Source: an uncultured Planctomycetia bacterium (GTDB taxonomy: Bacteria; Omnitrophota; Gorgyraeia; JAGLLT01; CAZKQD01). Taken from it: a stretch of 29,156 nt of DNA. Every line of letters begins with the position of its first letter. Within the stretch, counting starts at the first letter, position 1. The position numbers and the translations under genes are program-made. The stretch is taken from NCBI GenBank assembly GCA_964596885.1, contig CAZQVU010000001.1:1-29156 (forward strand), in the 5' to 3' direction. Of the stretch, positions 5,350 to 25,945 are shown piece after piece. The notes beneath the pieces are model-generated. The model saw only the letters and a list, made by a program, of their open reading frames with translations. It searched no databases and had not been told where the DNA came from.

Positions 5350-5357
5350 AAATATTT

Positions 5358-5741: not shown

Positions 5742-5743
5742 TT

Positions 5744-5771: not shown

Positions 5772-6308
5772 TACTATTATCCAATCAACTGCTTCCTTTA
5801 AATCTTTCTTTATATAATCTGGCTTTATCTGCCAAGAAAGCACATCATCTTTTTTGGTATTACCTGATAAAACTAGAATTGTTCTACAACCTATTCTCTT
5901 GCCTGCTTCAATATCTGTCCTTTTATCTCCAATAAAAAAGGTTTCTTTAAAATCGATACTCAATCCCTCTGTAGCCTGTCGAAAAAGCCCTACTTTGGGT
6001 TTGCGACAGAGACAGTTATCCTCATCCCTATGTATACAGTAATGAGTAGACCTTATCCTGCCTCCTGCCTTTTCTATCTCTGAAAGCATCTTAGCGTTAA
6101 CCTTTTTAAGGTCTTCCTTCGTATACAATCCCTTAGCAATCCCTGCCTGATTAGAAATAACTATGATATCATATCCGCGGGAATTTAATTTCTTTATAGC
6201 AGAGAGGGAACCGGGTAGAAATTCAAAATCCTCTGGACTCTTAACATAACCACCTTCGGGGTCTTTATTTATTACTCCATCTCTATCTAAAAATATTATC
6301 TTATTCAC
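5757..6308 (-). CDS. gmhB: D-glycero-D-manno-heptose 1,7-bisphosphate phosphatase-like HAD IIIA enzyme, 183 aa
   Basis: FLDRDGVIN, ISNQAGI, Zn motif CIH...CLCRKP, IGDKRTD; GTG start overlapping the upstream stop. GmhB versus histidinol-phosphatase-type substrate is inferred from glycan context. Confidence 0.85.
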   Translation of the reverse strand: MNKIIFLDRDGVINKDPEGGYVKSPEDFEFLPGSLSAIKKLNSRGYDIIVISNQAGIAKGLYTKEDLKKVNAKMLSEIEKAGGRIRSTHYCIHRDEDNCLCRKPKVGLFRQATEGLSIDFKETFFIGDKRTDIEAGKRIGCRTILVLSGNTKKDDVLSWQIKPDYIKKDLKEAVDWIIVEDKG

Positions 6309-9042: not shown

Positions 9043-9046
9043 TAGT

Positions 9047-10941: not shown

Positions 10942-10949
10942 AGCAGATA

Positions 10950-11756
10950 TTATAATTGTATATCGTATAATAATATACTAGCCGGACCAGCCTTAGTGTC
11001 TGCCTTGACCAAGATTGGTATTCTCTTTTTATTATCTGTAAACCAGATAGTTCCGCTTACCTCATGTCGGGTGGTGGCCTTAACCGGCCTTAAATGAAAA
11101 TATAATTTAATTGTTTTAATCCTGCCAAAAGGTGTTTTGAGTTCTTCCCTATCCTTTAACTGGACATAAAGAAATCTATCCCTTTTTCTGCTTTTTATAT
11201 TGATTTCATATCCCTCTTTCAACTTATCTATATCTAATAATCGTATAAGATACAAAGCACTAAGGGGATCCTGGGTATCAGGTAAGATTCTTATCTTCTC
11301 TCCCTCTATTGTAAGATAGAGGTCTTTTTGATTATAGAATACTTCTTTTTTATTTTTTCTATGTCCTCTTGCCTGAGACTCCTCTTTAAAATATAGTGAA
11401 TGCAGTCTATCTACATCCATATAAGAATGGAGGCTACCTTCTATCTCAAAAAATAATGAGACGAAGTCTGATGTCCTACCCCAGGCTAACAGATGATAGA
11501 CAAAACGATCTTTGTATCTTTTTATCTCCTCAACTCGAATAACTACCTTACCTGCAGGAAGACCTAAGTATCTAAGCGTATAAGCTATCTTCTCACCGGC
11601 TTTAAATGGTTCATCTAGTGACGAATGTAAGGTTGATTCAATTTGAGACTTATATTTTTTTGTGGCTAAATCCCAACCAAATAGTTGATAGAATATATAT
11701 AGACAGATAAAACCAATAATAAAAAATATAAAAAATTTAGTAATCTTATTTCTCAT
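10950..11756 (-). CDS. DUF3108-like exported protein with N-terminal membrane anchor, 268 aa
   Basis: N-terminal hydrophobic stretch; GEKIAYTLRYLGLPAG, TQDPLSALY, IWFTDNKKRIPILV resemble the DUF3108 pattern as recalled. Confidence 0.7.
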   Translation of the reverse strand: MRNKITKFFIFFIIGFICLYIFYQLFGWDLATKKYKSQIESTLHSSLDEPFKAGEKIAYTLRYLGLPAGKVVIRVEEIKRYKDRFVYHLLAWGRTSDFVSLFFEIEGSLHSYMDVDRLHSLYFKEESQARGHRKNKKEVFYNQKDLYLTIEGEKIRILPDTQDPLSALYLIRLLDIDKLKEGYEINIKSRKRDRFLYVQLKDREELKTPFGRIKTIKLYFHLRPVKATTRHEVSGTIWFTDNKKRIPILVKADTKAGPASILLYDIQL

Positions 11757-13525
11757 TTCGAATCCTCCAATTTAAACACCTTAATGTCTCCAAAGTCTTT
11801 AATTAGTATCAAATCAAGTTTTTTATCAAATTTATCAAGTTGCTTCTCAATTGCCAAACGGTAACTTTTTTCATATCTATCTAGATGCAGAATAACATAT
11901 CTAACTCCTAAACTCTTTAAGATTTCTGTTGCTTCAGGCTTAAGTATATCTCTAACCTTCTCGCTTATTGAATAAGCCTCAGTATCTGGCTGTGCTCCAT
12001 TTAATAACCTTTTTTTATGAACCCTTTGATAGAATAAATATTCAACATCATTACCTATAGGATACTCGGCTACGATCATATCATTATTCTGCTGCTTTAA
12101 CCATTTATAAACTTGAGGAATTCTACTCATATCTACTGTCTTAAAGGGTGGGAAGTTTATAAATTCAAAAATAAGAAAAATTATTAAACAGAAACTAACT
12201 ATCATTTTTTTCCAATTATTAGATAAGCACTCAATCAAAAATTTAAAACCGAAACCAGCCATAGCGCATAAAGCAAGCATAACTACTATTCCAAAACGTG
12301 CCCCATTACGAAAAAAAGGTGCAATCTTATAGACCCAATATGAAGGCAGATAGATGTTAGTATTCAAGATAATAAACTTAGGTGGAAGGGAAAACAAAAA
12401 AGCGACTATAGCTAAAGACACAAAGAATCCTAAGGTAAAATCATCCTTTTCTTTCTTTATTGCTTCTTTAATTATAGGCTTTTTTTGATTGTTCCAATAG
12501 CGGTATCCAAAAATTGAAAATAAAATAATACTAATCCCCAGATATAGACTATGCTCCTGCAGATTCTCTCCATAAAAGATTGAGCCTACAAGCCTCTGTG
12601 CAAAAGAACCAAAAAATGGATGATTGGCAGCAGGTAAAATATAATTAAATACTCTGGCAGCATAAATGTGGAGTTGACTTATTGGTCGCTCAGCCATTTG
12701 TCTCTGTAGCCAGGGCGTCAGCTGGCCTTCAAAAAAATATGACTTAAATATGGGGTAGATATATGGAAGGCACACTAAAACAGCAACCAGAATGCAAACA
12801 GATAGAAGAAGTATATTTTTTAATATTCCCACATTAGGTGTAAATATTGTCTCTCTTTTAATAAATAATTTCCTAAAAAATTTAAAAGCAAGAAATGTTA
12901 AGGCTGCAATCAGCATAAAATAGCCATAATATGTATCAGATAAAAGAGATAGAGCAAAAAATAATCCACATAATCCTGCACTGCTAAATGTCCTTTCATT
13001 ATGAAATTTAAACATAAAAAGAATAAAAAGCGGCATCCACTGAATATTAGCCAGGGTTATATGACAAGCATGAGCAAAGTGATATGGACAAAAAGAGAAT
13101 GCAAAACCAACTAAAAAAGAAGCCCATTTATTCTTGGTTAAATAATAGGATAGAAAATACATAGCTATGCCAGCTAATGGAAAGGTAAGAAATATTATAA
13201 AGTTATAAGCAAATATTTCATCTACTAAAACAGTTAAAATTAGAAGTGGGTAATTGGCAAAAGAAAGATTTATGTTTTTTGTTATATCCTTAGATAGATC
13301 TACGCCAAAAGGACTGGCTATAATAGGCACAAATTGCGGTGATAAATCATGCTGCCAGGCATATTTTACCCACCAGGCATACCATAAAGCCTCAAGTAGA
13401 TCCCCTTTATAATCATATATCTGAGATCGCATATTAATTATAAGGGGCCAGGTAAACAAAGCAGCCAATAATATAAATAATATAAAGATTATAATCTCGA
13501 ATTTAAACCTTCTTAAAAGACTCAT
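11753..13525 (-). CDS. Polytopic YfhO-like membrane protein, putative GT-C glycosyltransferase, 590 aa
   Basis: About 11-13 hydrophobic segments; acidic GD after TM1 then W..WW; FAFSFCPYHFAH, QWMPLF, FRNGARF; C-terminal soluble domain IPQVYKWL...EYP...LGVRYVILH. Confidence 0.7.
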   Translation of the reverse strand: MSLLRRFKFEIIIFILFILLAALFTWPLIINMRSQIYDYKGDLLEALWYAWWVKYAWQHDLSPQFVPIIASPFGVDLSKDITKNINLSFANYPLLILTVLVDEIFAYNFIIFLTFPLAGIAMYFLSYYLTKNKWASFLVGFAFSFCPYHFAHACHITLANIQWMPLFILFMFKFHNERTFSSAGLCGLFFALSLLSDTYYGYFMLIAALTFLAFKFFRKLFIKRETIFTPNVGILKNILLLSVCILVAVLVCLPYIYPIFKSYFFEGQLTPWLQRQMAERPISQLHIYAARVFNYILPAANHPFFGSFAQRLVGSIFYGENLQEHSLYLGISIILFSIFGYRYWNNQKKPIIKEAIKKEKDDFTLGFFVSLAIVAFLFSLPPKFIILNTNIYLPSYWVYKIAPFFRNGARFGIVVMLALCAMAGFGFKFLIECLSNNWKKMIVSFCLIIFLIFEFINFPPFKTVDMSRIPQVYKWLKQQNNDMIVAEYPIGNDVEYLFYQRVHKKRLLNGAQPDTEAYSISEKVRDILKPEATEILKSLGVRYVILHLDRYEKSYRLAIEKQLDKFDKKLDLILIKDFGDIKVFKLEDSK

Positions 13526-14703
13526 TTCATTTTCTTCTTCTGCATCAATAACATAACAATACCTAAAGCAAATATTGTCACCACTACCACAAAGATAATT
13601 TTCGGTATATTGCTATACGAAATCTTTTCGGTGGAATTGATTGATTGATTCTCTTTCTCTTCTTTTTCTTCTGATTCTTCTTCTAAAAAAGCAATATTCT
13701 TTCTTAACAAGGCTTCTTCCCATACGGGCTTAAAGCCTACACCTTCAAACTCTAACTTAACGAAATCATGCGTAATATCAATATTGCTAATCCAATTTAT
13801 ATTTTCTTTAGTAAAGGAACGACCAATAACCTCTGCAAAAAAATAGGCATCATCCTCTATGCTGGTAATATCAGCAGTAGACTTTGGAATAAATATAATC
13901 TTGCCACTTACCGCATCATTAGTCTCCAAATCAAAAGAAAGTCCTGCTGAATTAATTGACTCAGATGATAAAAGCAACCGCATACCTTCCTTTTCCTCCC
14001 ACCTGCGTAGGTTATCAGAAAACATCTTATCTTTGTTATTGGCAAAGATAAAAGCATCTCCTTTATTTAATATGCCCTCGAGTTTAACAAATTCCTCATT
14101 CTTAGAGACAGAATCAACCTCACCTCTGTATGTATCTATAGCCAGTCTAAGTTCCTTAGGGCTGGTAGCAATCAGGAAAAAGTCATCTATCTGGGTGTAG
14201 GCAGCCAAATCCTTTTGTCCATGAAAAGGTTCAAGTTTCTTATCCCGGTAGGTTATCCTATAACCCTCATAATTGACTTCTTTTAAGGGCTTTCTTTTCT
14301 TTATCAAAATATTTAGAGCCTCTCTGAAGATATCATCTTCGCCAGTTATCTTAATAATAACAATAAACTTAGAATAGATTGGTTCACCCTCTTCATTATA
14401 AGGTTTATCAGGTAAAAAAATGGCTCCGGCAATTGTCTTAAGAGGAAGTTCTGCATAAAGCTCTTTTATAGCCGTGTATTTCTCAGGATATTCTCTTATT
14501 TCAAAACGCTCTCTCCAGAGATTCATTACAAAAGAAAGGCCAGGATCATCAGGATTATTCTTAATCAAGATTATACCGTCTGACTCTGCAGGGAGAAACT
14601 TTAACTCTTCAATCTCAGAATAGACTACCTCAGTTAAACTTAAAACAATTAAAATGCAAACTCCTGTAATAATACAAAGTAACTTGCTATGACCCTTAAT
14701 CAT
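13522..14703 (-). CDS. Exported protein with N-terminal signal and C-terminal TM anchor, DUF3352-like, about 393 aa
   Basis: Signal-like MIKGHSKLLCIITGVCILIVLSL; EVNYEGYRI and YTQIDDFFLIATSPKELRLAID resemble DUF3352; acidic linker, TM, then QKKKMK. Start at ATG 14703 (GAGGAG upstream, overlaps the upstream stop). Confidence 0.65.
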   Translation of the reverse strand: MIKGHSKLLCIITGVCILIVLSLTEVVYSEIEELKFLPAESDGIILIKNNPDDPGLSFVMNLWRERFEIREYPEKYTAIKELYAELPLKTIAGAIFLPDKPYNEEGEPIYSKFIVIIKITGEDDIFREALNILIKKRKPLKEVNYEGYRITYRDKKLEPFHGQKDLAAYTQIDDFFLIATSPKELRLAIDTYRGEVDSVSKNEEFVKLEGILNKGDAFIFANNKDKMFSDNLRRWEEKEGMRLLLSSESINSAGLSFDLETNDAVSGKIIFIPKSTADITSIEDDAYFFAEVIGRSFTKENINWISNIDITHDFVKLEFEGVGFKPVWEEALLRKNIAFLEEESEEKEEKENQSINSTEKISYSNIPKIIFVVVVTIFALGIVMLLMQKKKMK

Positions 14704-15661
14704 CTTTTTCTCTCCTCTTTTTTGCCAATTCAAAATTCAAAACAATGTGACTATCTGACATTTTAACATTATAGTTAAATTGATAAAAATTTGCTTCAAA
14801 TACCCTCTTTAATATCTGAGAAACAAACCAGATATCTTTTCTGGCGTCTTTGAAATCAGTCTCTGGCTTGAAGATAAAATTGACCTCTCCTTTATTTATT
14901 CTATTTTTATAATCATTGGACAAGTAGATATAAACCTCATCTAAATTATCTATAGTCAGAAAAAAATTATAAGAGGTTTTCTCTAAAACTTTAGTCAGGT
15001 AATAATCTATTATACCAGTTTTATTGTCTATGTATATAAATAATGGTTTGCGATAGCGCTCATTTAAAAAATTCTTCAACCGATTCTCCTTTCGCTTGGT
15101 TATGTTAAAGCAATCAATTAGGCTGTGTAATCTTTCTTTAGACGTAGATAAGAAATATGTATCTTTATATTGGGCAAATGACTTAAAATCCTTCCCTTTA
15201 TCTAATTCAGTTCTATCCCAAATTAAAAACCCCTGTCTTTTAGTTAACTTATAATCTTTACTTATGCCCGGTCTATTTAAATATAAAAAGAGTGGAATCT
15301 CTGCAAAGCGAGTAAGTTTCTTTGATTTAATTAATAAGGTGTAGTCAAATTCCTCCTTTTGAGATTCATCAACCAGCACAATAAAAGAAAGTGGTGAAAA
15401 AAAATATCCTGCTACCTTAAGAACACATCTTGAAAGGCGTCCAATTAAAAACTTTTTTCCAAATCTAAAATTGATAATTTCATCAAATAGAGGGAAGCTC
15501 TCTTTGTCTAAATTAAATCTTAAGGCTACAAAATGTCCCTCAACAGAAATCTTGCCTAGATTCGCTTCTTCTTGCGGCAAAAAGCTCCAGATAAATATAA
15601 TGAATACAAAAACAATAATGATAAAGAAAACCAGACCAAAGATTCTCTTAATTAAACTCAT
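14696..15661 (-). CDS. Membrane-anchored exported protein, paralog of 13522-14703, 321 aa
   Basis: N-terminal TM; FAQYKDTYFLSTSKERLHSLID aligns with the neighbour's YTQIDDFFLIATSPKELRLAID; C-terminal halves also align by eye. Confidence 0.65.
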   Translation of the reverse strand: MSLIKRIFGLVFFIIIVFVFIIFIWSFLPQEEANLGKISVEGHFVALRFNLDKESFPLFDEIINFRFGKKFLIGRLSRCVLKVAGYFFSPLSFIVLVDESQKEEFDYTLLIKSKKLTRFAEIPLFLYLNRPGISKDYKLTKRQGFLIWDRTELDKGKDFKSFAQYKDTYFLSTSKERLHSLIDCFNITKRKENRLKNFLNERYRKPLFIYIDNKTGIIDYYLTKVLEKTSYNFFLTIDNLDEVYIYLSNDYKNRINKGEVNFIFKPETDFKDARKDIWFVSQILKRVFEANFYQFNYNVKMSDSHIVLNFELAKKRREKDD

Positions 15662-16764
15662 TCTTCTTTAAGGTATTCTTTCTCTTTAAAGAACTTTATT
15701 AATTTTAGAATTAGCCCGATTACTACAAAAAGAAAAGCCCAGTTTGCCAGTTGTTCTGAAATAATCTTCATATCGAGAATCAATAAAATAGCGCATACAA
15801 GAAGCAGAATAGCAAAAGTGCCAATAAAGATATCGGCATATAGATTATATCTGCCGAGGGTATTATCTCTTAACTGCCTCATCCTTAACTTAAATTTATC
15901 CTTCCTACCGTATTTAACCACCTGATAGATCTTACCTATAGAAATCGAGCTAATTAAAATTAGCCAGAAATCTAATTCATACCAAAAAAAAGTATAAGTT
16001 GATATGATTTTACTTATAAGATATAGGATGGAAAAAATTGAAATTGCTGGAAGATATGTCCAAAAATCAGATTTTATTATTGCAACTAACCTCTTATCAG
16101 TGATAGAGAAGAAGGCGATAGAGTATAAAAGCCATAGGCTTAAAAAACCAATTCCACCCCACAAACACAATTCCCAGTTAACTGGCTTGTTGCCGCGCTT
16201 AGCAAACCAACGAGTCGTTTCCCAGATTGTATATGCCCTCATAAAGACCAAATTTCTATTCTTATAGTTTTTTACCGTTAGTTTCTTAAAATCAGGTTTA
16301 GAATTAATCCTTTTTTTAATAAATACTAATTTATTCAACCCTTCTTTAGTTAATTCAACTGGTAAGATGAGACTTTTCTTAAGCCACACTCCAGTCTTTT
16401 CAGCCTTCAGATTGCCCAAATGATGCTCTCTACAATATACCTCAATAACTTGATCTGGGTTATGAAAACGAAGGATAAAATTGAGAACCAAACCATCTTT
16501 CTGGGGTGTATAAAAAATAAGGGTTGCTCTTTTTTCTTCCATTGAAACATAGAAGTCTTTATCTCTTCTGTTGCCCCAGCCAGTTAATAAATAAAACCTA
16601 TCAGTCTTTTCAGTTGGATAGAAATTATATGTCGCCTCAAATTTTATAAAATTGGATTCTACCATAGTTTGATAAAAAAAGATTAGCAAGAAACCAAATA
16701 TTACCGCTCCGATAATATAGAAAAGGAGGCTCTTATCTTCTATGAATTTCGCGAATATAGACAT
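15658..16764 (-). CDS. Membrane protein with an extracytoplasmic beta-rich domain and about 5 C-terminal TMs, 368 aa
   Basis: N-terminal TM; soluble domain LTGWG...KEGLNKLVF; multiple TMs ending ISEQLANWAFLF; ATG with AGGAG. Confidence 0.7.
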   Translation of the reverse strand: MSIFAKFIEDKSLLFYIIGAVIFGFLLIFFYQTMVESNFIKFEATYNFYPTEKTDRFYLLTGWGNRRDKDFYVSMEEKRATLIFYTPQKDGLVLNFILRFHNPDQVIEVYCREHHLGNLKAEKTGVWLKKSLILPVELTKEGLNKLVFIKKRINSKPDFKKLTVKNYKNRNLVFMRAYTIWETTRWFAKRGNKPVNWELCLWGGIGFLSLWLLYSIAFFSITDKRLVAIIKSDFWTYLPAISIFSILYLISKIISTYTFFWYELDFWLILISSISIGKIYQVVKYGRKDKFKLRMRQLRDNTLGRYNLYADIFIGTFAILLLVCAILLILDMKIISEQLANWAFLFVVIGLILKLIKFFKEKEYLKEE

Positions 16765-16769
16765 CTCTC

Positions 16770-19700
16770 CTATCTACCCTTTTTTCTTCTTATAATTGGT
16801 TGTATAAAAATAACCAGTATACAGGATAAGAATGTTGGTATACTTGCCAGAAGGCCTATCCAGAACTGATTTTGAGGAGCATATTTTATCACAATGATTA
16901 CTGGTTGTCCACTCTTTTCTATTTTAGATACATACCAACCATTGGCATAACCATTTATTATAAAGTGATTTGAGATTATTTTGCGCCTGCCATCTGGCTT
17001 AAGAATATAGGCTTGCCATTTGTCATCATAAGACTCATTGAAGATAAGAAAAAAGTTGCTATCCTCTTGACAGTTAACCTCTAATTTATACCTAACAGGA
17101 CTTTTATCTAAAACTTTGACTGGATTCAGCCTTCGCGTCATTTTTAACGACTCAGGAACGAGTAGCAGATAATAGCCTTCTCCTCTATGATGAATAAATC
17201 TTATTGAATTTAAACCCTCCTTTAAACTGATTGCTTCTTTATGAATATATTCAATCTTTCTTCTATTAAACCTTAAATTAAACCTTTTTTGATTGACTAC
17301 AATCTTCTTTGATGCTGGCAGATAATTAATGTCATCTACTGGATAAGGATAAAGATAAATGTAAAATCTATTATTAAAGGGTATCTTTAAGTTGATATTG
17401 AACTCATTTGCATAAAAAATGAAATCTTTACTAAAACTAATACCTCTTTTAAGACCATTATGTAAAATAGACTTTTGATTTGTTGCAAAAGACAAAATAT
17501 TTATACCCGGTTCTAACTTAAGGTCAATAAGTCTCACTTCACTATCCTTATCGGCTTCTAACATATTCTTTTGAACCAACTCATCATTTAAATAAACATA
17601 AAGCCCTCTTCTCATCCTAAAACTCTTACAGGAAAATTTTAGATTTGTACGTATTATATCCTGGCTCTGATTAATAATCTTTAACTTAAGTGGTAATCCT
17701 GGACCTTTTATCCACAATATCTTTTTTGAAGTTGTGTCGCGATAATAGGTGTCCTCAATGAAGTAAAAGTTCAAATATTGTCTAATCTCCTCATCTGGTA
17801 CTTCCTTCTTATAAAAAATATTATCCTCCTCGGTTGAAAATAAAAAACAGGGGTTGCGGTTAATCTCATTAGATATATCCTTATTATTATAATGAATCTC
17901 TATATCAAATAGATTCTCTCTTTGCAAAAGATTAAGCAGTGACGATGGTAAATCTTTCTCAAAGACGATATGGTAATTAAACAAATCCGTGCGACTTAAA
18001 GGTTCAAAAGCTCTGATATCGCCATTTAAAAAGATAATCTTCTTGGTCGTATAAATATGAGGAATCTTATTCTCTAAGAGATAAAAATCCCATCTACCAA
18101 AGGATCTTTCAAATCTTAAATCTCTTTGCATAGCCAGTTTGTTAGATATCAATTCGGGACTTTCGTATCTATCATAAAAGTCCCATCTGATATCTCTTTC
18201 ATATAAAAGATAACCGATATTAAAAAGTGGCAAGACTTTACTGGCAATCATATGAGATTTCTGTAATCTCAAATCTTTTAGTTTCTTTCTCTCATCAGTA
18301 TTTGTTTTATCTATATTTAGATAAAGCCACTTATATAACAAATTATCCATATTCGGGATGTGATAAGGCGAGCCAAATATTCCCTCAACAACAGGAGTTA
18401 TAAGAGGCTTTTCAGTAAAATAACTAATAACTGGTTCATATCCTGTATAACCCCAATCAGTAATTCTTCTACCCATAGAGGGCAAAACCATTATTCTAAA
18501 AAAATCCCTTTTTTCTGAAAGCCATCTACTGGCATCATATACATAGTGAGGAATCTTAATATAGTTAGGAGGAAGAAATTCTCTTTCTTCTTCAGTAGCA
18601 AACATCCTGCCGGTGATAATGGGATAGGCATAAACCATAATAGCCACGAAGATTAAAACAGGTATAATTATAGAACCTAAAGGCGCTCGTCTTATCCTCT
18701 GTATAAGCCAATCTATAAAGATTCCAATCATAACTGCAAATCCTAAGACTGTCAAAAGAGACCATTTATACCAGGGACTCCTTATAATCCAAAACCCTGG
18801 AATAACCTTTAGGCAAATCTTATAAATAAAGGAAAAAGGAGGATGGATACCGCAGGAGAAGATAATCCCTAAAAGCGCAATGATTATAAAGAATGGGGCA
18901 AAGATTGAACTCCTCAAGTTAAATATAGACAAAAAAGCGCAAATTGCTGGAATAATACCCAAAATTAAAAAAAAGGCATTCTTTTGATAAAATTCACTAT
19001 AAAGAACATAAGGCTCCTCGTATTCGGCATACCAGGTCCAGGCACCCTGCAATCTTAAAACATTAAGGAAACTGGTATCCTTTGACCTTTCTTTAATACC
19101 TTGCTGGACAGACTCCTTATAAGAAACTAAAGGTCCTATCTGGGTTGATTTTAATAGACGCATACCTTGAGGATAAATCCAGAATGCATTAACCAATAAG
19201 ATAATTAATATAAATAAGGTCAAGAATTTTAAAAATCTCTTAGCGCTTAATTCCTTTTTTAAAAGTACTAAAATAATAAAATTATACAAAAACCACAAGA
19301 TAAAAATGCTTATGCAGACATAGGCAATAGGCGGATTAACTCCAATACCCGAAAGCAAAATAGCCACAATACCTGCCAGACAAACATACTTAAGCACCTG
19401 ATTAGTCTTAAGTCCATTGACAAATAAACCCATAAGTATTGGCATAGCAACATACGCTGAGATGTTGGCAATGTTAAACCCTAACCATATGGGTTCTAAG
19501 TACAGATTAAACATATAAAAACCAACTACACAAAGCGCAATGGACGGATGCGGATGTCTTCTATTCAGGATTGAAAATAGAAGATAGTAGATAGATGCAC
19601 CACTCAGCATAAACCAAAAAATGAATTGAAACTTTTGAGCCGAAACAATGGAAAAACCAAGTTTCTGTAACAGGGCTGGTAAGAAAAGAAAAAATAAGGC

Positions 19701-19913
19701 TGAAAAATTGTCTATTGGATAAGAACCGGTAGCACGTTGATTAAACCAGGAATAGGCGTAGGCTTTCCATTCGGTAAAATTAAGAGGTAAACCCACATCT
19801 TCAGATTTAATAAGATATCCGTCTTTAAACCATAATAGTGGAGCCAATCCCAGAATAAAAATTATTAAAAAATTGAGTAAAAGCCTCTTATTATCACCAC
19901 TAATTTTCTTCAT
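16770..19913 (-). CDS. Large AftD/YfhO-like membrane protein, putative GT-C glycosyltransferase, 1047 aa
   Basis: TM1 LGLAPLLWFK then SED; about 11-12 TMs with NAFWIYP, LRLQGAWTWY, IRSPWYK; long extracytoplasmic region; C-terminal SPVRY..FNESY..W..H..INGYANGW..YAPQ plus TM. Confidence 0.75.
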   Translation of the reverse strand: MKKISGDNKRLLLNFLIIFILGLAPLLWFKDGYLIKSEDVGLPLNFTEWKAYAYSWFNQRATGSYPIDNFSALFFLFLPALLQKLGFSIVSAQKFQFIFWFMLSGASIYYLLFSILNRRHPHPSIALCVVGFYMFNLYLEPIWLGFNIANISAYVAMPILMGLFVNGLKTNQVLKYVCLAGIVAILLSGIGVNPPIAYVCISIFILWFLYNFIILVLLKKELSAKRFLKFLTLFILIILLVNAFWIYPQGMRLLKSTQIGPLVSYKESVQQGIKERSKDTSFLNVLRLQGAWTWYAEYEEPYVLYSEFYQKNAFFLILGIIPAICAFLSIFNLRSSIFAPFFIIIALLGIIFSCGIHPPFSFIYKICLKVIPGFWIIRSPWYKWSLLTVLGFAVMIGIFIDWLIQRIRRAPLGSIIIPVLIFVAIMVYAYPIITGRMFATEEEREFLPPNYIKIPHYVYDASRWLSEKRDFFRIMVLPSMGRRITDWGYTGYEPVISYFTEKPLITPVVEGIFGSPYHIPNMDNLLYKWLYLNIDKTNTDERKKLKDLRLQKSHMIASKVLPLFNIGYLLYERDIRWDFYDRYESPELISNKLAMQRDLRFERSFGRWDFYLLENKIPHIYTTKKIIFLNGDIRAFEPLSRTDLFNYHIVFEKDLPSSLLNLLQRENLFDIEIHYNNKDISNEINRNPCFLFSTEEDNIFYKKEVPDEEIRQYLNFYFIEDTYYRDTTSKKILWIKGPGLPLKLKIINQSQDIIRTNLKFSCKSFRMRRGLYVYLNDELVQKNMLEADKDSEVRLIDLKLEPGINILSFATNQKSILHNGLKRGISFSKDFIFYANEFNINLKIPFNNRFYIYLYPYPVDDINYLPASKKIVVNQKRFNLRFNRRKIEYIHKEAISLKEGLNSIRFIHHRGEGYYLLLVPESLKMTRRLNPVKVLDKSPVRYKLEVNCQEDSNFFLIFNESYDDKWQAYILKPDGRRKIISNHFIINGYANGWYVSKIEKSGQPVIIVIKYAPQNQFWIGLLASIPTFLSCILVIFIQPIIRRKKGR

Positions 19914-19958
19914 TTAGATAAAAACTAATTGTAAAAAAAATTTAGGCAAAGTTTTAGT

Positions 19959-20924
19959 TTAAATATTATTCTCTTTTTGAGCAAAGATAACTATACAATC
20001 TCCCATCTTAAACAGATCTGTAATAAAATCAAAAGGAGCAGTTATAATTATTAAGAATTTAGAAAACTTGCTTTGAGTGATACTAGAAGCTATAGTTCCA
20101 ACCGATTTAAAAAAAAGTTTTTTTATTTGAAAACCATTATTACTAATAATTTTTTTTAGCGTTTTGTCATTGAAATGATATAAATGACGAGGAACATCCA
20201 AGCCTGCCCAAGATTTACCAAAAATTTTTGACGCTAAACTCTCAATATTTGGGGTCTCAATTATAAGATAACCCCCTGGTTTTAAAATCTTATATGCCTT
20301 TTTTAAATATTTGGATGGGTGGTGTAAATGCTCTAAAACACTTAACATCCTAACTACATCAAAAAAATCATCAGGAAAATCTGAATCTAACAAATCTAAA
20401 GTCTTTACATTTAGACCTCTTGCGCGAGCTCGTTGGGCAGCTTCATCATTTATTTCGAGCCCATAAACCTGCCAACCCAGCTCTTTTAGAGGATAAATAA
20501 ATAAGCCATCTCCACAACCTACATCTAAAATTTTCCCCTTTCTAATATTATGGGGAGCAGAAATGAATCTACGCCTCCCTATCAGAGCTAAACCTTGTTC
20601 TATCTTCCTAGACCAAAAAGTTTTACTTTGATCAAAACTCCCATAATAATAAGAAAATGTAGCTTCTCTTATTTTATCTTTTATTCTATCAAACAAAGGA
20701 TAAAATCCTTTAAGCTTCCGGTCAAGCTGCCTAAAGGAGTAATAATCATCGTGGTAATATTTGTTTATTTCATTATTATCAGGTCTTGGATTCAAATAAA
20801 CCAAACCACAATTTTTACATTTAACTATATTAAATTTCTTATCCTTGTTTTGGCAATTGACTAAATCTCTATAATATAATTCATAAACAGAGCTACCGCA
20901 AAGATCGCAGTTTACATGTTCCAT
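19959..20924 (-). CDS. Class I SAM-dependent methyltransferase with N-terminal Zn ribbon, 321 aa
   Basis: CDLC...CKNCGLVYLNPRP; ILDVGCGDG; GLEIN; VLEHLHHP; LKPGG; PRHLYHF. Confidence 0.9.
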   Translation of the reverse strand: MEHVNCDLCGSSVYELYYRDLVNCQNKDKKFNIVKCKNCGLVYLNPRPDNNEINKYYHDDYYSFRQLDRKLKGFYPLFDRIKDKIREATFSYYYGSFDQSKTFWSRKIEQGLALIGRRRFISAPHNIRKGKILDVGCGDGLFIYPLKELGWQVYGLEINDEAAQRARARGLNVKTLDLLDSDFPDDFFDVVRMLSVLEHLHHPSKYLKKAYKILKPGGYLIIETPNIESLASKIFGKSWAGLDVPRHLYHFNDKTLKKIISNNGFQIKKLFFKSVGTIASSITQSKFSKFLIIITAPFDFITDLFKMGDCIVIFAQKENNI

Positions 20925-23900
20925 TTTTTTGTTCTATGAGTAATTAACATTGATAAAATCAAAACAGCACTAATTAAAGAAATTAAACCGCCTAATTTAG
21001 TCAGTCTTTGAAGCCAAAATTCTAATATTAAATGCTGAATTTCTGCCTGCTCACTGTCTATATACCAAGCATTTGCATAACCATTTACCTTGAAATGGGT
21101 TTTTATATCTGCGCCATCAGCATAGAGTTTCCAATTCGGACTATAAGCCTCATTAAAGATTATAAAACAAGGTCTATCTATATCTGAAGTCAGTTTATAT
21201 TTTGTAGGGTTGCATTGGGTGAATTTTATCTTTTTATTTATGGATTCTTTTCTCTTTGTATAAGTTGAAAATTCAACATAGTAGTCCTCCGTGGAAAACT
21301 GCCCAATCTTAAATGTATGCATACCCTCATTTAAATATATCTTCTGCTTCCTAAGATGGTTTTCTCCTGCATAATCTAATCTTACTGATTTACCATCAAT
21401 AATAAACTCCTTACCCTCTTCAAGATTAATATCATTCTTTTCTAAGACTTCAAGTGAATATGGAAATACATCTATATTATAATAACCATCTTGAGGAATA
21501 AAAACCTTGCCCCTATATAGCAGACTACATATCCGAAAATCCCTAAAGGCAAAAGAGACTAAATGTCCTTTTCGCCTTTCAAGTTTGCAGGGAGTATAGA
21601 AACTAATTACATTTCTTCCTGGTAAAAGAGCAAGTTTCTTAAGTTTTATAGTTGTAACTTTATTGGCTTCTAAATGAGGACATTGAAGAAGGTTATCATT
21701 TAGATATATATAAAGACTCCTGTCGGTCTCATACGAAAATACATCAAATATCAAGTTAACCATCTGTTCTTTATTATAAGAATTAGTAATGATGATATTA
21801 GGCTTTTTATTTGTATACAACCACATCCAATCTTCGCCATCTTCTAAATTCTCTGGGCTGCTAAAACCTAACTTTTTCTCTACTTTTATACCTTCAGCTA
21901 AGGCATAATCGCTTTTAAACTCAAAAGGCAATATATCTGTTGTATAAAAAAGACTGAAGTTATAATTCTTATAGTTCAATTTCCTTTCTTTTAACTTATC
22001 CTTTATCTTATCTGCTGGATAATTAAAAAATGTTATCTCTTTAATTAAATCCGTCTGAAACAAATAATTAATCTTCTCTTCTGAATTTTGCTCTTCAAAA
22101 ATAAAAGCAGAGTCATCTATATTATGTCTGTTGCATAATGCCGCTAAGGCTTTAATATCACCAAAGACCATATTACCTCTATAAACGACACCTATCAATT
22201 CAGATGTATTGGGAACTTTATAAAACTCCCACTCCCCTATTCTCTTGGTAAATTGAACAGGTTTCATCCTCATAATCTTTTCCTTTAAATCGGCTGGCGA
22301 TATAGTATCACCATAAAAATCATACCAGGCATCATGTCGCAGCCATATATATTTCACACTTAATAGCCGTAATATCTTATAAACATTTACAGAAAATTGA
22401 TTATAAAGGTTATCATAGAATAAATCTCTAATCTCGTTCTTACCTGCAAAAGCCGCCCTACCCCATATAACAGGCACATTACTTTCAATAAGATTTAATA
22501 AATTTGTTGGCGCACCATATCCCCAGCGATAAGTATCTAAATTTTCGCGTGGTAGGGAAAGAAGTCTAAAACCTTCCCCTTGTTCATCCAGCCATTTAGT
22601 GGTTTCAAAGACATAGGGTGGAATCTTTAAATGTAGTGGAAAAAGTTTCTTTCTGTCTTGAGGAATAATTTTCCCAGTCAGCATAGGAAAATTATAACTA
22701 AGATAAAAAATAATCAAAATTAAAATCAATAAATTTGGTACTAATTTATACTCTTTTGTACTACTTATTCTAAAACTCGCTTTAAAGCGTTTGGAAAAAT
22801 TACACTTGTGGTATATGGCGCTTACACTAACACTCACTAAATAAGCATAGGCAAAAAGAGTTGCCAAGGAAAATTTATAATAGGGGCTTCTAAAAACTAA
22901 AAAAACAGGAATTTTTTTGGTTATCCACAAAAATATACAACCAAAAGGTGGATGGGCACCTGTAGCAAACAGAGTCCCTATAAAGGCAACTACCATAAAA
23001 AATAAAACCTCTTTATTTCTTTTAAAAAGAACAGCCATATATGCTAAAATCGGCAAGGCCACACTCATTAACAGAAAAAAAGAGTGATTAAAATAAGTCT
23101 TAGCATAAGCGACATAAGGCTCACCTTGCCATGAATAGTACCAATCCCAGGCACCCTGAAAGCGGATAACATTCAGTATACTGGTGTGAGTGCTTATGCC
23201 TTTTAACCAATTGACCATATTAAAAGCCTCAAGGACCTCTTTTGAGGTTGAAGTTTTAAGGGTATTAAGCAGTTCAAAAGAATAAGGTAGTATCCAGAAA
23301 AAATTGAATAATAAATACACACCGAAAAATAAACCCAAAAAACCAAAAAGCAAAAAGAGGTGTTCTACCCTTGCCCCTTTTAATATTTCTATTATACAAT
23401 AGAAAACAAAATAACCCAAACAGATACCTACCGGCATAACAAATACTGAGGGACTGGCGCCCATCTCAGAAAATAATAAAGATAATAATCCTGCAAATAC
23501 AGAGGCCTTTAAATAGTTCAACCTGCCATCCAGACCCTGAATAAAAAAACCTAACATAACAGGCATGGCTACCAAACTGGAAAGTTCAGCCGCCTTAGCA
23601 ACTTCCCATATATTAAAAACAAAAGGGTTAAAAGCATATACTAAAACGGCTACAAACCTCTGAAGTCTATTAGGGTTTTCTTTCTGGATGACAGAAATAA
23701 AATAATACATAGAGAGGCAGATGGCTGTAAACCAGAAACAATAACTGGCCTTCTGGGTCAAAAATAGAGAACTGCTTATCCAGTAAAAGAACGCCTGGAT
23801 ACCATGGAAGAAAATAGTAGTAATATTACTAGCTGATGAAAGGCCTGTATTATTTAAATGGTTCCATGTGAAGAAACGATTGATGAAAAATCTCACAGGT

Positions 23901-24040
23901 GCAAGTGGAAAACAAACATCAGGACCATTTATAATACAACCTGACTTAAACCATAATAAAGGAACTAAACCCAGGATAAAAACAATAATTAGGTCTTGAA
24001 ATAACTTCTTTTTAGGATATCTTCTCTTAACTTTCTCCAT
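20912..24040 (-). CDS. Large AftD/YfhO-like membrane protein, putative GT-C glycosyltransferase, about 1042 aa; paralog of 16770-19913
   Basis: LGLVPLLWFK..GPD, NFFWILP, IRFQGAWDWY, FRSPYYK, NPTKY..FNEAY..W..H..VNGYANAW plus C-terminal TM. Start uncertain (24040 chosen by alignment to the paralog; 24043, 24082 or 24094 possible). Confidence 0.75.
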   Translation of the reverse strand: MEKVKRRYPKKKLFQDLIIVFILGLVPLLWFKSGCIINGPDVCFPLAPVRFFINRFFTWNHLNNTGLSSASNITTIFFHGIQAFFYWISSSLFLTQKASYCFWFTAICLSMYYFISVIQKENPNRLQRFVAVLVYAFNPFVFNIWEVAKAAELSSLVAMPVMLGFFIQGLDGRLNYLKASVFAGLLSLLFSEMGASPSVFVMPVGICLGYFVFYCIIEILKGARVEHLFLLFGFLGLFFGVYLLFNFFWILPYSFELLNTLKTSTSKEVLEAFNMVNWLKGISTHTSILNVIRFQGAWDWYYSWQGEPYVAYAKTYFNHSFFLLMSVALPILAYMAVLFKRNKEVLFFMVVAFIGTLFATGAHPPFGCIFLWITKKIPVFLVFRSPYYKFSLATLFAYAYLVSVSVSAIYHKCNFSKRFKASFRISSTKEYKLVPNLLILILIIFYLSYNFPMLTGKIIPQDRKKLFPLHLKIPPYVFETTKWLDEQGEGFRLLSLPRENLDTYRWGYGAPTNLLNLIESNVPVIWGRAAFAGKNEIRDLFYDNLYNQFSVNVYKILRLLSVKYIWLRHDAWYDFYGDTISPADLKEKIMRMKPVQFTKRIGEWEFYKVPNTSELIGVVYRGNMVFGDIKALAALCNRHNIDDSAFIFEEQNSEEKINYLFQTDLIKEITFFNYPADKIKDKLKERKLNYKNYNFSLFYTTDILPFEFKSDYALAEGIKVEKKLGFSSPENLEDGEDWMWLYTNKKPNIIITNSYNKEQMVNLIFDVFSYETDRSLYIYLNDNLLQCPHLEANKVTTIKLKKLALLPGRNVISFYTPCKLERRKGHLVSFAFRDFRICSLLYRGKVFIPQDGYYNIDVFPYSLEVLEKNDINLEEGKEFIIDGKSVRLDYAGENHLRKQKIYLNEGMHTFKIGQFSTEDYYVEFSTYTKRKESINKKIKFTQCNPTKYKLTSDIDRPCFIIFNEAYSPNWKLYADGADIKTHFKVNGYANAWYIDSEQAEIQHLILEFWLQRLTKLGGLISLISAVLILSMLITHRTKKWNM

Positions 24041-24059
24041 CACAGCAGATTTGAAATTA

Positions 24060-24470
24060 TTATCTATCCTCTTTAATCGCATCGCTGAATTCACATATTA
24101 CTGCTGCAACTAACATAAAATAGGCAATATTTGAAATCTGTTTAGTAAAAAAAATAAACTTAGTATATGAAAAGATAACTCCCGTAACAATCAATAATAT
24201 AAAAGCTATTGCAAACGGAATGCTGCTTTTTTTAAATAGAAAACTGCCCACTTTATTAAATTTAGAGATGATTATCGGCTTGAGCAATTTAGATAAAAGG
24301 CCATAGACCAATACTGTCAGAATCTCAGCAAAAGCCAAAAGATAATTGATCCTTTTACCCGCTTCTTTTTCTATTGCTATACCTTTTAGATAGAGAAATA
24401 AACAGAGAGTAAACAATAGAATAAAAATCCACAACCATCCCTTTTTCAAGAATTTTGGCAACCTTTTCAT
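24060..24470 (-). CDS. Small 4-TM membrane protein, 136 aa
   Basis: Four hydrophobic segments; C-terminal TKQISNIAYFML resembles the end of the 368-aa protein; ATG overlaps the upstream TGA. Confidence 0.7.
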   Translation of the reverse strand: MKRLPKFLKKGWLWIFILLFTLCLFLYLKGIAIEKEAGKRINYLLAFAEILTVLVYGLLSKLLKPIIISKFNKVGSFLFKKSSIPFAIAFILLIVTGVIFSYTKFIFFTKQISNIAYFMLVAAVICEFSDAIKEDR

Positions 24471-25945
24471 TTTCTCTTTCTTATTCCTTTTTTAACAAAA
24501 TGAATAATAACCCAGATTAACATTATAATAAAAAATATAGATGAGATAATAAGTCCTGATTCATATAATCTTTGAGGATAAAACTCCATAATTATTTTAA
24601 AATTATAAGGAGCCTCTTTCTTGAATAATTCTTTTACCGGCACAAACCAGCCATTAGCATAAGCATTAACCCTCCTATGCTCGCTCAATCTTATCAACTT
24701 ACCCTTAGAATTAAGTGCAAAAAGTAAAGCTGATTTTTCAGTTCCCAAACTTACATCTATATCCTTGGCAACATAAGCCCTCCAGCCAGTATGATAATTT
24801 TCACATAAACTTATCCAGAAAGAATCACTGGCTTTTACATCAACTACATATCTTGTAGGATTCACTCTCTTAAATTCTATAACAGGTTCTTCTCTTTTCT
24901 GACTTATATTCTCTGAAAGAAAAAGAGTTTCCAGGTTTACATATTCATTTTCAAAAGAGTTTAATTTTACCTCCTCTCCTTTTTTTAGTTCTAAAGTGGA
25001 AAAGTCTACCTCGCTTTTTTCTCTCAATATTTCATTTATAGTATTCCTTTTAAGTTGGTTTAAATAATATTTTTTATTATTCAATTCAAAAAGTGGACTG
25101 TTTAAAAGAGCGGCTAACTTGCCTTTTTCCTCCATAAAAGAGTAAAGGTCGCCTTCTTTATTTTGTTTCTCTCTATTGTATTCTTGTAAAATAACGGATT
25201 TATCAAGTGATTCTTCATTGTATAAACCGACATCTTTTATTATTAGTTCTTTTCCAAGATTGCTGCCCTTAATTACCATAAGAAATTTCCTCAAGATAAA
25301 AGAGACTCTATCTGGTCGGTGTATTCTTAACTCATTATAAAGATTAGTACTAATACTTTTTTCTCTTCCCTTATCATCATGCTTCATATAATAACTCATA
25401 GGATATGATTTGAGACCGCCTGATATAGACTCATCCGGCTTGTTTCCATAGTATGCTAGAAAATCAATCTCCTTGTCATTGTTTACATCTACATAAAAAT
25501 ATAAACTTATATCAATTTTAGCTGGCGAATTATAGTTTAAATAAAAATAAGGATAGATATAAGTATTAATGTCTAACGATTTAATAGGAGGAAATACCAC
25601 TTTTTTACTTTCTGAACCTGGTTTTATAGAGACTGAAATGCCATCTCTAACAGTATTAACTTTGATGGAGGTTGTCGATTTTGGTATATTCAAATCAAGA
25701 GGATATATATATTTCTCTTTTACCTTTGTAGTCTTTGGACTTATGAGTGCCTTTATCGAATATCGACCTGTTCTATCTATAATTTTAGTTAAACTATCCT
25801 CTTCTTTTGTATCAAATATGTAAAGATAACTTTTATGAGCCAGTATATCAGGCTTTATATCATATTCATCGCCTTTAGCTGATGTGTTCTGAATAATACT
25901 TAAGATAAATAGTAAGATAAAAATTATGGTCTTTATATTCTTCAA
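24467..25945 (-). CDS. Exported/anchored protein carrying a stand-alone YfhO-type C-terminal module, about 492 aa
   Basis: TTG at 25945 with GGAGG 7 nt upstream, 2 nt after the upstream stop; signal-like IIFILLFILSIIQNTSA; C-terminal NPTRY..ENY..W..H..VNAYANGW..FYPQ plus TM and basic tail. Confidence 0.72.
   Translation of the reverse strand: MKNIKTIIFILLFILSIIQNTSAKGDEYDIKPDILAHKSYLYIFDTKEEDSLTKIIDRTGRYSIKALISPKTTKVKEKYIYPLDLNIPKSTTSIKVNTVRDGISVSIKPGSESKKVVFPPIKSLDINTYIYPYFYLNYNSPAKIDISLYFYVDVNNDKEIDFLAYYGNKPDESISGGLKSYPMSYYMKHDDKGREKSISTNLYNELRIHRPDRVSFILRKFLMVIKGSNLGKELIIKDVGLYNEESLDKSVILQEYNREKQNKEGDLYSFMEEKGKLAALLNSPLFELNNKKYYLNQLKRNTINEILREKSEVDFSTLELKKGEEVKLNSFENEYVNLETLFLSENISQKREEPVIEFKRVNPTRYVVDVKASDSFWISLCENYHTGWRAYVAKDIDVSLGTEKSALLFALNSKGKLIRLSEHRRVNAYANGWFVPVKELFKKEAPYNFKIIMEFYPQRLYESGLIISSIFFIIMLIWVIIHFVKKGIRKRK

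Follow-up and report, generated by a model that had tools for sequence, protein, structure and literature searches.

What does a member of the uncultivated phylum Candidatus Omnitrophota build with three large polytopic membrane proteins that are encoded close together among several smaller membrane proteins? The question is raised by a 29,156-bp stretch of DNA from this phylum (hereafter the window), in which nine genes abut on the minus strand at 11753-25945. An earlier note on this DNA had read these nine genes as a candidate undescribed system, a modular extracytoplasmic glycosylation machine with several GT-C glycosyltransferases. The window was annotated with Pfam, NCBIfam, hydropathy and BLASTP. 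Open reading frames (ORFs) were found for all nine genes at the positions given in the note, and eight of the nine products carry transmembrane (TM) segments or signal anchors by hydropathy, as the note had counted, the exception being a 321-amino-acid (aa) S-adenosylmethionine (SAM) methyltransferase. The results described below indicate that the region is probably the membrane-enzyme part of a long operon building a modified cell-envelope glycan. It is a clade-specific variant of the multi-component transmembrane glycosylation that has already been described (PMC8035078), made up of existing Pfam families and of unstudied accessory families.

Three homologous GT-C glycosyltransferases are encoded in the region

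The two largest products, p1047 (16770..19913, minus strand) and p1042 (20912..24040, minus strand; p1060 when read from its longer ORF), align over their full length in an all-against-all BLASTP comparison (27% identity between p1047 and p1060, E 7e-108). Hydropathy places about 11 TM segments at the N-terminus, followed by about 570 soluble residues and one C-terminal TM segment, which in both proteins is the only hydrophobic segment after the soluble region (1016-1042 in p1047 and 1031-1055 in p1060). The soluble part of p1047 comprises a proximal soluble domain, two beta-sandwich units and a module carrying the motif NGYANGW; in p1042, the polytopic N-terminal core is followed by a beta-sandwich region and an NGYANAW module. 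p1047 scores 39.2 bits against the Pfam family PF11847, GT-C_AftD (formerly DUF3367, cut-off 26), and the ortholog of p1042 in locus L002 (57% identity) carries PF11847. A search of the PDB with the single sequence of p1047 gave no match, and a profile of 44 AftD-like sequences matched the M. abscessus AftD structures 6W98 and 6WBX (E 1e-15). Profile positions 454-586 aligned to residues 438-569 of AftD, which form its membrane-proximal soluble domain, and positions 933-1017, covering the NGYANGW module and the last TM segment, aligned to residues 1197-1282; the NGYANGW module is therefore the C-terminal unit conserved in the AftD family.

An Asp directly after TM1 (D39) is present in 44 of the 44 AftD-like sequences, in an alignment which includes p1042, and K383 and R378 are nearly invariant. 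The N-terminal TM alignment to AftD is weak (-0.1 bits), and the other essential AftD positions were thus not placed. Among short motifs, L..G.N.[IL].F of the beta-sandwich units was counted three times in p1047 and p1060 (0.013 expected from shuffles), and the NGYANGW-type motif occurs three times (p1047, p1042 and the smaller protein p492) against 0 expected. On sequence grounds, p1047 is a member of GT-C_AftD and p1042 a divergent paralog; both are best described as AftD-like proteins, not AftD orthologs, and as putative GT-C enzymes by their homology to AftD and to p590. No arabinose-donor pathway genes were seen among the window proteins with Pfam or NCBIfam; nothing points to arabinofuranose chemistry, and there is no reason to assume it.

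The third large protein, p590 (11753..13525, minus strand), itself matched no Pfam or NCBIfam model at E <=0.1. Many of its homologs at 32-40% identity carry PF09586 (YfhO) and/or PF19830 (DUF6311), one of them being named 'YfhO family protein', and the homolog P0138 reached 33.4 bits in the YfhO/DUF6311 test (cut-off 28.5). An AlphaFold2 (AF2) model of p590 was built from 64 homologs (predicted local distance difference test, pLDDT, 91.2; predicted template modelling score, pTM, 0.91) and compared with the PDB using Foldseek. All 16 matches at E <=1e-3 were to STT3 of the oligosaccharyltransferase (OST) complex, to the C-mannosyltransferase DPY19 or to PglB (E 1.6e-9 to 2e-5, probability 1.0, TMq 0.40-0.52, 9-14% identity), with weaker matches to EmbA/B, Pmt1-Pmt2 and ALG6. 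Sequence searches of the PDB, with p590 alone and with the p590 family profile, gave no match, so that fold comparison alone succeeded. When the families were compared with hhalign, residues 27-590 of p590 aligned to residues 25-622 of p1047 over 517 columns (99.5%, E 4.6e-23). The column of D42, a residue which follows TM1 in the first loop, holds D or E in 64 of 64 homologs. The motifs WWD and WW.[YW]G are absent from p590, p1047 and p1060. p590 is therefore best viewed as a minimal AftD-like GT-C superdomain, consisting of the TM core and the proximal soluble domain, without the distal sandwich modules and anchor.

Taken together, Pfam, the AftD profile, Foldseek and hhalign indicate that all three large proteins are homologous GT-C glycosyltransferases. 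The description of the locus as multi-GT-C and extracytoplasmic in the earlier note is supported by these data, as are the polytopic core that it saw in the 590-, 1047- and 1042-aa proteins, the acidic residue after TM1, the NGYANGW module common to the 1047-, 1042- and 492-aa proteins, and the relation to known GT-C structures.

The GT-C genes lie in a long operon-like run

Nearly all genes of the AT-rich window (G+C about 32%) are on the minus strand, and successive genes overlap or are separated by short gaps all along the run from 28949 to 4173. Within 11753-25945 the junctions range from -13 to +45 bp, six of the eight lying within 5 bp, mostly as 4-bp overlaps. Because all genes share one strand, with overlaps or gaps of at most 45 bp, the run is predicted to be operon-like and translationally coupled, and to form one transcription unit at least from 28949 to 5757 (minus strand). 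Scans of the window for promoters and terminators stayed at chance level, and no Rfam or tRNA features were found in it. Two genes have alternative starts. For p492, a TTG at 25945 preceded by GGAGG gives 492 aa with a signal peptide, the longer ORF starting from an upstream TTG and encoding 509 aa (p509); for p1042, an ATG at 24040 just past the stop of the preceding gene gives 1042 aa, the longer ORF starting from GTG and encoding 1060 aa. Judged by these signals, the shorter starts, which the earlier note had used, appear more plausible than the longer ORFs.

A six-gene block is fixed in one Omnitrophota clade

Orthologs of p1047 (46-58% identity) head a conserved block. In L001/L003, L002 and L004, which are three other Omnitrophota genomes, the p1047 ortholog is followed by the genes for p368, p321, p403, p590, a DUF3108 protein, a Glyco_trans_1_2 protein, two GT2 glycosyltransferases and a methyltransferase, in this order. 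The genome scan for AftD-like loci was seeded with 17 closer sequences, and a metagenome scan seeded with p403 recovered nine further contigs, in which the neighbours stand in the same order wherever the contig is long enough. Block order is kept in L001/L003, L002, L004, L022-L029 and L031, DUF3108 lies downstream of p590 in L001-L004, L023 and L028, and p368, p321 and p403 were accompanied by an AftD-like gene and by p590 in all observed cases. The AftD-like protein, p368, p321, p403, p590 and DUF3108 are thus encoded by a fixed six-gene block of one Omnitrophota clade.

Gene content upstream of the block is variable: the number of AftD-like paralogs ranges from 2 to 4, the methyltransferases differ, and p492/p136 may be there or not; as separate genes, p492 and p136 are absent from L001-L004 and L021-L031. 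Co-occurrence of the accessory genes with the large genes, which had been set beforehand as the refuting test, was therefore observed for p368, p321, p403 and p590 and not for p492 and p136. The boundaries first proposed, 11753-25945, do not hold: the conserved unit reaches past them, downstream to DUF3108 and the cytoplasmic transferases and upstream to a carbamoyltransferase, and p492/p136 do not belong to its core. Among the loci of this clade, L031 carries four AftD-like paralogs (1039, 1031, 1034 and 1041 aa; 4288-20621) ahead of the p368 and DUF3352 genes. L021, a 3362-bp metagenome contig of the Joint Genome Institute (JGI; Ga0190361_1009726), shows 99-100% protein identity to p321, p403 and residues 1-388 of p590, and is therefore the same organism sampled independently.

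Named homologs are overwhelmingly from Candidatus Omnitrophota metagenome-assembled genomes. The AftD-like subfamily comprises 51 clusters at E <=1e-5, and more distant relatives are found in Nitrospinaceae, Chloroflexota, Actinomycetes and a Methanoperedens archaeon. Distant p590 homologs also occur in other large glycan clusters without the accessory families. B12-binding radical SAM enzymes recur in Omnitrophota glycan clusters with p590 homologs (L018, L019, L020 and L030 1-942), which suggests unusual C-methylation or other radical chemistry on sugars.

The accessory proteins are membrane-anchored and share modules

The gene for the DUF3108 protein (10950..11756, minus strand; 268 aa with an N-terminal anchor) overlaps the end of the p590 gene by 4 bp. 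Its product scores 86.8 bits against Pfam PF11306 (cut-off 26) over profile positions 2-206 of 209, and a PDB sequence search gave no match. DUF3108 is fused to the C-terminus of the p590 homologs P0092, P0093 and P0099 (about 825 aa), from more distant Omnitrophota. Since no TM segment separates the p590 part from DUF3108 in these fusions, DUF3108 lies on the same side of the membrane as the GT-C soluble domain, presumably the periplasm. Two distant p590 homologs, P0144 and P0146 (929 and 943 aa), have a C-terminal ILEI/PANDER-type domain (PF15711) where others have DUF3108, which would fit a swappable periplasmic binding domain.

p368 (15658..16764, minus strand) is a 6-TM protein without a Pfam family. 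Its family is rare, with 35 representatives at E <=1e-3 among 1.84 billion proteins. Its soluble domain of about 160 aa (residues 37-198) is predicted to be periplasmic, and its C-terminus is formed by a hairpin module that reads AEQxANWAY.... One family member, P0196 (700 aa), ends in a SAM methyltransferase domain, which ties the family to the methyltransferases of these clusters. As this methyltransferase must be cytoplasmic, so must be the C-terminus of p368, and the fusion together with a loop rich in Lys and Arg (283-307) argues for six TM segments, cytoplasmic ends and a periplasmic location of the 160-residue domain. Residues 58-153 of p368 aligned to residues 717-814 of p1047 with a 22-sequence p368 profile (hhalign E 4.8e-4, probability 32%); a profile of four orthologs showed no sandwich similarity to the AftD-like family (hhalign probability 0.4%), and p368 carries only a relaxed form of the L..G.N.[IL].F motif. 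These comparisons hint that the soluble domain of p368 may be related to the beta-sandwich units of the large proteins. The sandwich units that the earlier note had assigned to three proteins are accordingly well founded in p1047 and p1042 and weak in p368. A match of p368 to DUF7081 was under cut-off and was rejected.

A hidden Markov model (HMM) of the p368 C-terminal hairpin scored 22.6 bits on residues 84-133 of p136, the best of 2000 shuffles of p136 reaching 13.8, in agreement with the TM hairpin that had been noticed in the 368- and 136-aa proteins. The motif Q[LI][AS]N.A[FY] by which it had been recognised occurs twice against 0 expected, and it is not kept among the four closest p368 orthologs. 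The hairpin, AEQxANWAYLxLVIGxIxK, is also found as stand-alone proteins of 47-85 aa (P0184, P0188, P0190, P0192, P0198, P0199 and P0204), and in two copies, as a tandem duplication, in P0200 (139 aa). Apparently, this is a small membrane module that has not yet been described.

The two proteins encoded between p368 and p590 are paralogs. p403 (13522..14703, minus strand; 393 aa from an internal ATG) scores 28.0 bits to DUF3352 (PF11832, cut-off 26.8), with only positions 125-279 of the 536 in the profile being matched. Its family comprises 23 clusters, all at least 46% identical, and 18 of 22 database homologs carry PF11832. p321 (14696..15661, minus strand), an N-terminally anchored periplasmic protein, is a divergent DUF3352 paralog which is tied to that family via p403 alone (BLASTP E 8e-8, with jackhmmer cross-matches between both families); the DUF3352-like pair of the earlier note was thus recovered. 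A Pfam IL1 match of p321 was under cut-off and was rejected. The AF2 model of p403, of moderate confidence (pLDDT 77, pTM 0.71), shows an N-terminal helix (TM or signal), a compact alpha/beta domain in which a unit of hairpin plus helix is repeated, an acidic, disordered linker (335-365) and a C-terminal TM segment. The ligases, Arp2/3 subunits and ABBA prenyltransferases listed by Foldseek were discarded as a basis for a fold assignment, being low-TM noise (TMq <0.2), and a PDB sequence search with the DUF3352 profile gave no match. A 113-aa Ser-/Leu-rich ORF lies antisense to p403 (13859-14200, plus strand), wholly within the conserved gene, and is most likely no gene.

At the upstream end of the nine genes, p492 (24467..25945, minus strand) consists of a signal peptide, a domain of about 300 aa, a NAYANGW module and one TM anchor. 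Read as p509, its C-terminus matches the C-termini of p1060 (E 5e-6) and p1047 (E 2e-6), and p492 would be in effect an AftD-like soluble half without the GT-C core. p136 (24060..24470, minus strand) is a small protein with about four TM segments for which neither Pfam nor NCBIfam gave a family and jackhmmer gave no homolog in any examined locus; a GtrA-type flippase was considered for p136 and dropped, there being no family match in Pfam or NCBIfam. That p492 and p136 are the remnants of a third AftD-like gene was also rejected, the similarity of p136 to GT-C cores being only at chance level. They are lineage-specific additions built from the same modules.

Cytoplasmic enzymes surround the membrane proteins

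Within the window, the run opens about 200 bp from the upstream edge with the gene for a 393-aa cytoplasmic GT4-type (GT-B) glycosyltransferase (27768..28949, minus strand; Pfam Glycos_transf_1, 68 bits, no TM segment). It is followed by a cytoplasmic O-carbamoyltransferase of NodU/CmcH type (25948..27771, minus strand; 607 aa; Carbam_trans_N E 2e-48, Carbam_trans_C E 4e-64), whose NCBIfam NodU score of 137 bits is below cut-off; GT4 homologs adjoin the carbamoyltransferase in L002, L005, L006 and L017. The methyltransferase lying between the two AftD-like genes (19959..20924, minus strand; 321 aa; Methyltransf_23 E 2e-29) is cytoplasmic and has an N-terminal Cys4 zinc ribbon. Its full-length homologs (E <1e-50) adjoin AftD-like genes in L002, L005, L006, L009-L012, L016, L029 and L031. 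Of ten AftD-like loci of at least 16 kb each, from other phyla or more distant Omnitrophota, 8 have the carbamoyltransferase and 7 the zinc-ribbon methyltransferase. This linkage across phyla suggests a methylated, carbamoylated product.

Downstream of DUF3108, Pfam and NCBIfam identified a Glyco_trans_1_2 protein (10072-10941), a GT2 whose nearest solved relatives are GalT1 and chondroitin synthase (9047-10075), a second GT2 of 261 aa (8257-9042), a SAM methyltransferase (7431-8312) and a DegT-type sugar aminotransferase (6301-7434), all on the minus strand. The first four are found in the same order in L001, L002 and L004 with 55-73% identity. The nearest solved relatives of the 261-aa GT2 are GmaR, a flagellin O-GlcNAc transferase (E 1.6e-18), and SunS, a peptide S-glycosyltransferase, which gives a mere hint of a protein substrate. 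The D-glycero-beta-D-manno-heptose 1,7-bisphosphate 7-phosphatase GmhB comes next (5757..6308, minus strand; NCBIfam NF006506, 185 bits, cut-off 178) and is also present downstream in L002.

Two further genes close the run. At 5358-5741 (minus strand), between GmhB and a glycolipid synthase gene, lies a member of the '23S rRNA intervening sequence protein' family (PF05635, 55.9 bits), a four-helix bundle in an odd spot inside a glycan operon. The glycolipid synthase gene itself (4173-5291, minus strand), at the end of the same run, encodes an MGDG-synthase/GT28 protein similar to diglucosyl-diacylglycerol synthase (NCBIfam 191 bits, cut-off 500), a possible maker of a glycolipid anchor; the gene is not conserved there in L001.

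A candidate lipid-phosphate sugar synthase is encoded in related clusters

GT-C enzymes use lipid-phosphate-linked sugars, as established for the superfamily (PMC8035078; bioRxiv 10.1101/2019.12.22.885152). A candidate synthase of such donors is found in related clusters. In L030, a 317-aa GT2 with two C-terminal TM segments (5698-6651), about 3.3 kb upstream of the first AftD-like gene, is homologous over its full length to ArnC (E 8e-53) and GtrB (E 3e-47). It is also present in L020 and in L031 (3-878), L030 and L031 being orthologous clusters, and an ArnC/GtrB homolog lies 0.03 to 2.4 kb from AftD-like genes in six Chloroflexota loci. Judged by homology, these genes support a lipid-phosphate donor model for the family. 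Outside L020, L030 and L031, an ArnC/GtrB homolog was seen in L007 (14292-15209), L016 (14140-15048), L009, L010, L012 and L013.

When the L030 protein was used as a tblastn query, no match was obtained in the window. The two GT2s of the window were considered as lipid-phosphate sugar synthases and ruled out by their topology and nearest solved relatives. The synthase gene may lie beyond the window end. As to a flippase, p136 (4 TM) and p368 (6 TM) are not assignable to flippase families. L030 also encodes a 508-aa polytopic membrane protein without a Pfam match on record (2078-3604), with a truncated 75-aa copy at 1673-1900. Its homologs in L005, L006, L010 and L011 (40-43% identity) span AftD-like loci of Omnitrophota, Nitrospinaceae and Chloroflexota. 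This protein, which is not in the window, may be a further GT-C or the missing flippase.

Comparison with known glycosylation systems

p1047 and p1042 share the overall layout of AftD: a polytopic GT-C core at the N-terminus, followed by a proximal soluble domain and beta-sandwich modules, and a membrane anchor at the C-terminus. In AftD, K39, D41, E251, K361 and D474 are essential (bioRxiv 10.1101/2019.12.22.885152), and the invariant Asp directly after TM1 here may be the counterpart of D41. The presence of several paralogs in one pathway is likewise reminiscent of AftA-D and Emb. The proteins differ from AftD in length (about 1040 aa against about 1400), in having one C-terminal TM segment in place of the five-helix region that binds acyl carrier protein in AftD, and in the Tyr at the essential D474. 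The host also differs: homologs were described only in Actinobacteria in the AftD structure paper (bioRxiv 10.1101/2019.12.22.885152), whereas the present ones are from Omnitrophota, with relatives in Nitrospinaceae, Chloroflexota and Methanoperedens.

With the YfhO/GtlB-type systems of Firmicutes (PMC8035078), the region has in common a YfhO-like GT-C predicted to act outside the membrane, homologs of p590 carrying PF09586, and an expected GT-A enzyme for polyprenyl-phosphate sugar, of which the orthologous clusters encode an ArnC/GtrB homolog. Extra membrane proteins can take part in multi-component transmembrane glycosylation systems (PMC8035078). Unlike those systems, however, the operon encodes three GT-Cs and not one, p590 itself misses the YfhO model, and p368, the two DUF3352 proteins and DUF3108 have no counterpart in Firmicutes; in addition, the host carries lipopolysaccharide (LPS)-type genes such as GmhB. 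Two of the three defining parts of the Firmicute systems, the donor synthase and the flippase, were sought in the window and not found. The ArnC/ArnT and GtrA/GtrB/GtrC pathways follow the same logic, a GT2 loading the sugar on undecaprenyl phosphate, the lipid being flipped and a GT-C transferring the sugar to LPS in the periplasm. ArnT and GtrC are, in contrast, single small GT-Cs without carbohydrate-binding modules (CBMs) or accessory DUF proteins, and no window protein had an ArnT or GtrC family match in Pfam or NCBIfam. From STT3/PglB, p590, p1047 and p1060 differ by the absence of the WWDxG motif of the periplasmic domain.

Proposed role of the region and alternatives

In the model that we favour, the cytoplasmic GT4, Glyco_trans_1_2, two GT2s, DegT, GmhB, two methyltransferases and carbamoyltransferase would make and modify sugars or a lipid-linked oligosaccharide, and an ArnC/GtrB-type enzyme encoded outside the window would load single sugars onto polyprenyl phosphate. 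After flipping, each GT-C would transfer a sugar from lipid phosphate to the growing glycan at the periplasmic face, different GT-C paralogs giving different linkages, as do the Aft and Emb enzymes in mycobacteria. The beta-sandwich modules may hold the acceptor glycan, DUF3108 would be a detachable periplasmic domain of p590, and p368 with the DUF3352 pair may serve as clade-specific acceptor-handling or scaffolding subunits for p590 and the adjacent AftD-like enzyme. Candidate acceptors are a lipoglycan, LPS, a wall polymer and a surface protein.

Several observations weigh against this model. No polyprenyl-phosphate sugar synthase was found among the proteins of the 29 kb window; its two GT2s, which lack convincing TM helices, are similar to GT2 enzymes of the soluble type, not to ArnC/GtrB. 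No window protein belongs to a GtrA, Wzx or MATE-like flippase family, nor to the Wzy, Wzm or Wzt families, as the earlier note had also found for Wzx, Wzy, Wzm and Wzt, and no initiating transferase, polymerase, ligase or exporter was recognised among them. Without a donor synthase or flippase in the window, the system as delimited at 11753-25945 is incomplete. For the AftD-like enzymes, p1042/p1060 scores 20.5 bits to GT-C_AftD, under the cut-off of 26, and HMMER pairs the 'TRDEP' of AftD with 'TGYEP', so that D474 corresponds to Tyr492 of p1047, a residue which is not conserved in the family; the chemistry may therefore differ from that of AftD. The roles proposed for the DUF3352 proteins and p368 are guesses: none of the 22 members of the p368 family had a Pfam match, and the p403 model found no credible match in the PDB with Foldseek (best TMq <0.2). 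The families of p368, p321, p403 and DUF3108 were undetected in the multi-AftD loci of other phyla by iterated HMM search, which indicates that AftD-like enzymes do not require them and that these partners are clade-specific. Finally, a physical complex, the hypothetical 'machine' of the earlier note, is suggested only by synteny and one fusion.

A simpler explanation would be an ordinary O-antigen, LPS-core or capsule cluster whose GT-Cs only decorate side branches, in the manner of GtrC and ArnT, with p368, p321, p403 and DUF3108 as unrelated envelope proteins that have stayed adjacent through inheritance of the operon in one narrow clade, and no dedicated machine. GmhB and the DegT aminotransferase are indeed typical LPS or O-antigen genes, and surface-glycan loci of Omnitrophota are hypervariable; moreover, only close relatives have the accessory families (at least 46% identity for p403), so that their synteny could reflect shared ancestry and not selection, and they are absent from multi-AftD loci of other phyla. 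We nevertheless consider this explanation unlikely, because the order of the six-gene block is constant while upstream gene content varies, the DUF3108-p590 fusion occurs in more distant Omnitrophota, p368 shares modules with the AftD-like proteins and p136, and two to four large GT-Cs with CBM-like modules exceed side-branch needs. Protein glycosylation, in which p590 and perhaps the AftD-like enzymes would pass sugars or oligosaccharides from lipid carriers to surface proteins (S-layer, pili or giant surface proteins) as STT3/PglB, DPY19 and PMT do, also appears unlikely. The match of p590 to known folds is at the level of the GT-C superfamily (TMq 0.4-0.5, 9-14% identity) and p590 has no WWD motif, even though STT3, DPY19 and PglB, its best structural matches, are all protein glycosyltransferases. 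The homologs of p590 are YfhO/DUF6311 proteins and the large proteins are nearest to AftD, and the substrates of both YfhO and AftD are glycopolymers; the beta-sandwich modules are similar to the CBMs with which AftD binds glycans (bioRxiv 10.1101/2019.12.22.885152). Omnitrophota do encode very long surface proteins (bioRxiv 10.64898/2026.06.07.730766), and the solved relatives nearest to the 261-aa GT2, GmaR and SunS, glycosylate protein and peptide; no candidate acceptor protein gene is, however, present in the operon.

The accessory proteins might also be read as a transport or insertion route carrying finished lipoglycan to the outer membrane, and not as partners in catalysis, given that the DUF3352 proteins, DUF3108 and p368 are all anchored in the inner membrane with periplasmic domains and that no known exporter type was recognised in the window. 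This is highly improbable: neither in sequence nor in fold are they similar to Lpt, Lol, Mla, AsmA or Wza-type proteins, no component of the outer membrane was detected, and the p403 model shows a compact alpha/beta domain that forms neither a groove nor a bridge. A more far-reaching proposal, which we regard as rather doubtful, consists of two linked readings, namely that the six-gene block is a self-contained undescribed periplasmic complex for an Omnitrophota-specific lipoglycan, and that the wider cassette is a pathway shared across phyla. In such a complex, DUF3352 and DUF3108 would represent new subunit classes that handle glycans or glycolipids, and p368 would couple cytoplasmic modification to periplasmic transfer or flip the donor, an idea suggested by its sandwich domain in the periplasm, by its hairpin module and by the fusion of a family member to a methyltransferase. 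In the cross-phylum pathway, 2 to 4 AftD-like GT-Cs with an ArnC-like synthase, the zinc-ribbon methyltransferase and the carbamoyltransferase, a cassette seen in Omnitrophota, Nitrospinaceae, Chloroflexota and Actinomycetes, would produce a methylated, carbamoylated surface polysaccharide. We retain, as the probable function of the region, the membrane-enzyme part of an operon for a modified cell-envelope glycan.

Implications

In the literature searched, the papers on Omnitrophota gave no account of this gene set; no paper was found on DUF3352, and none on the function of DUF3108. The gene set can in this respect be called undescribed, as first proposed, but it is not a categorically new kind of system: its parts come from known superfamilies, and it represents an informative extension with no surprise of principle. 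The known setting of AftD-type enzymes is the arabinan pathways of Actinobacteria, and that of YfhO-type enzymes the decoration of teichoic acids in Firmicutes. Here both types are encoded in one operon, in an uncultivated phylum with LPS-type genes, and are locked to four unstudied membrane proteins. If the block acts as a unit, it would provide the first functional context for DUF3352, DUF3108 and the new hairpin module, and it would mean that AftD-like multi-paralog glycan assembly is widespread beyond Actinobacteria. A surface glycan with a possible part in the host-attached lifestyle that has been proposed for Omnitrophota would also be indicated.

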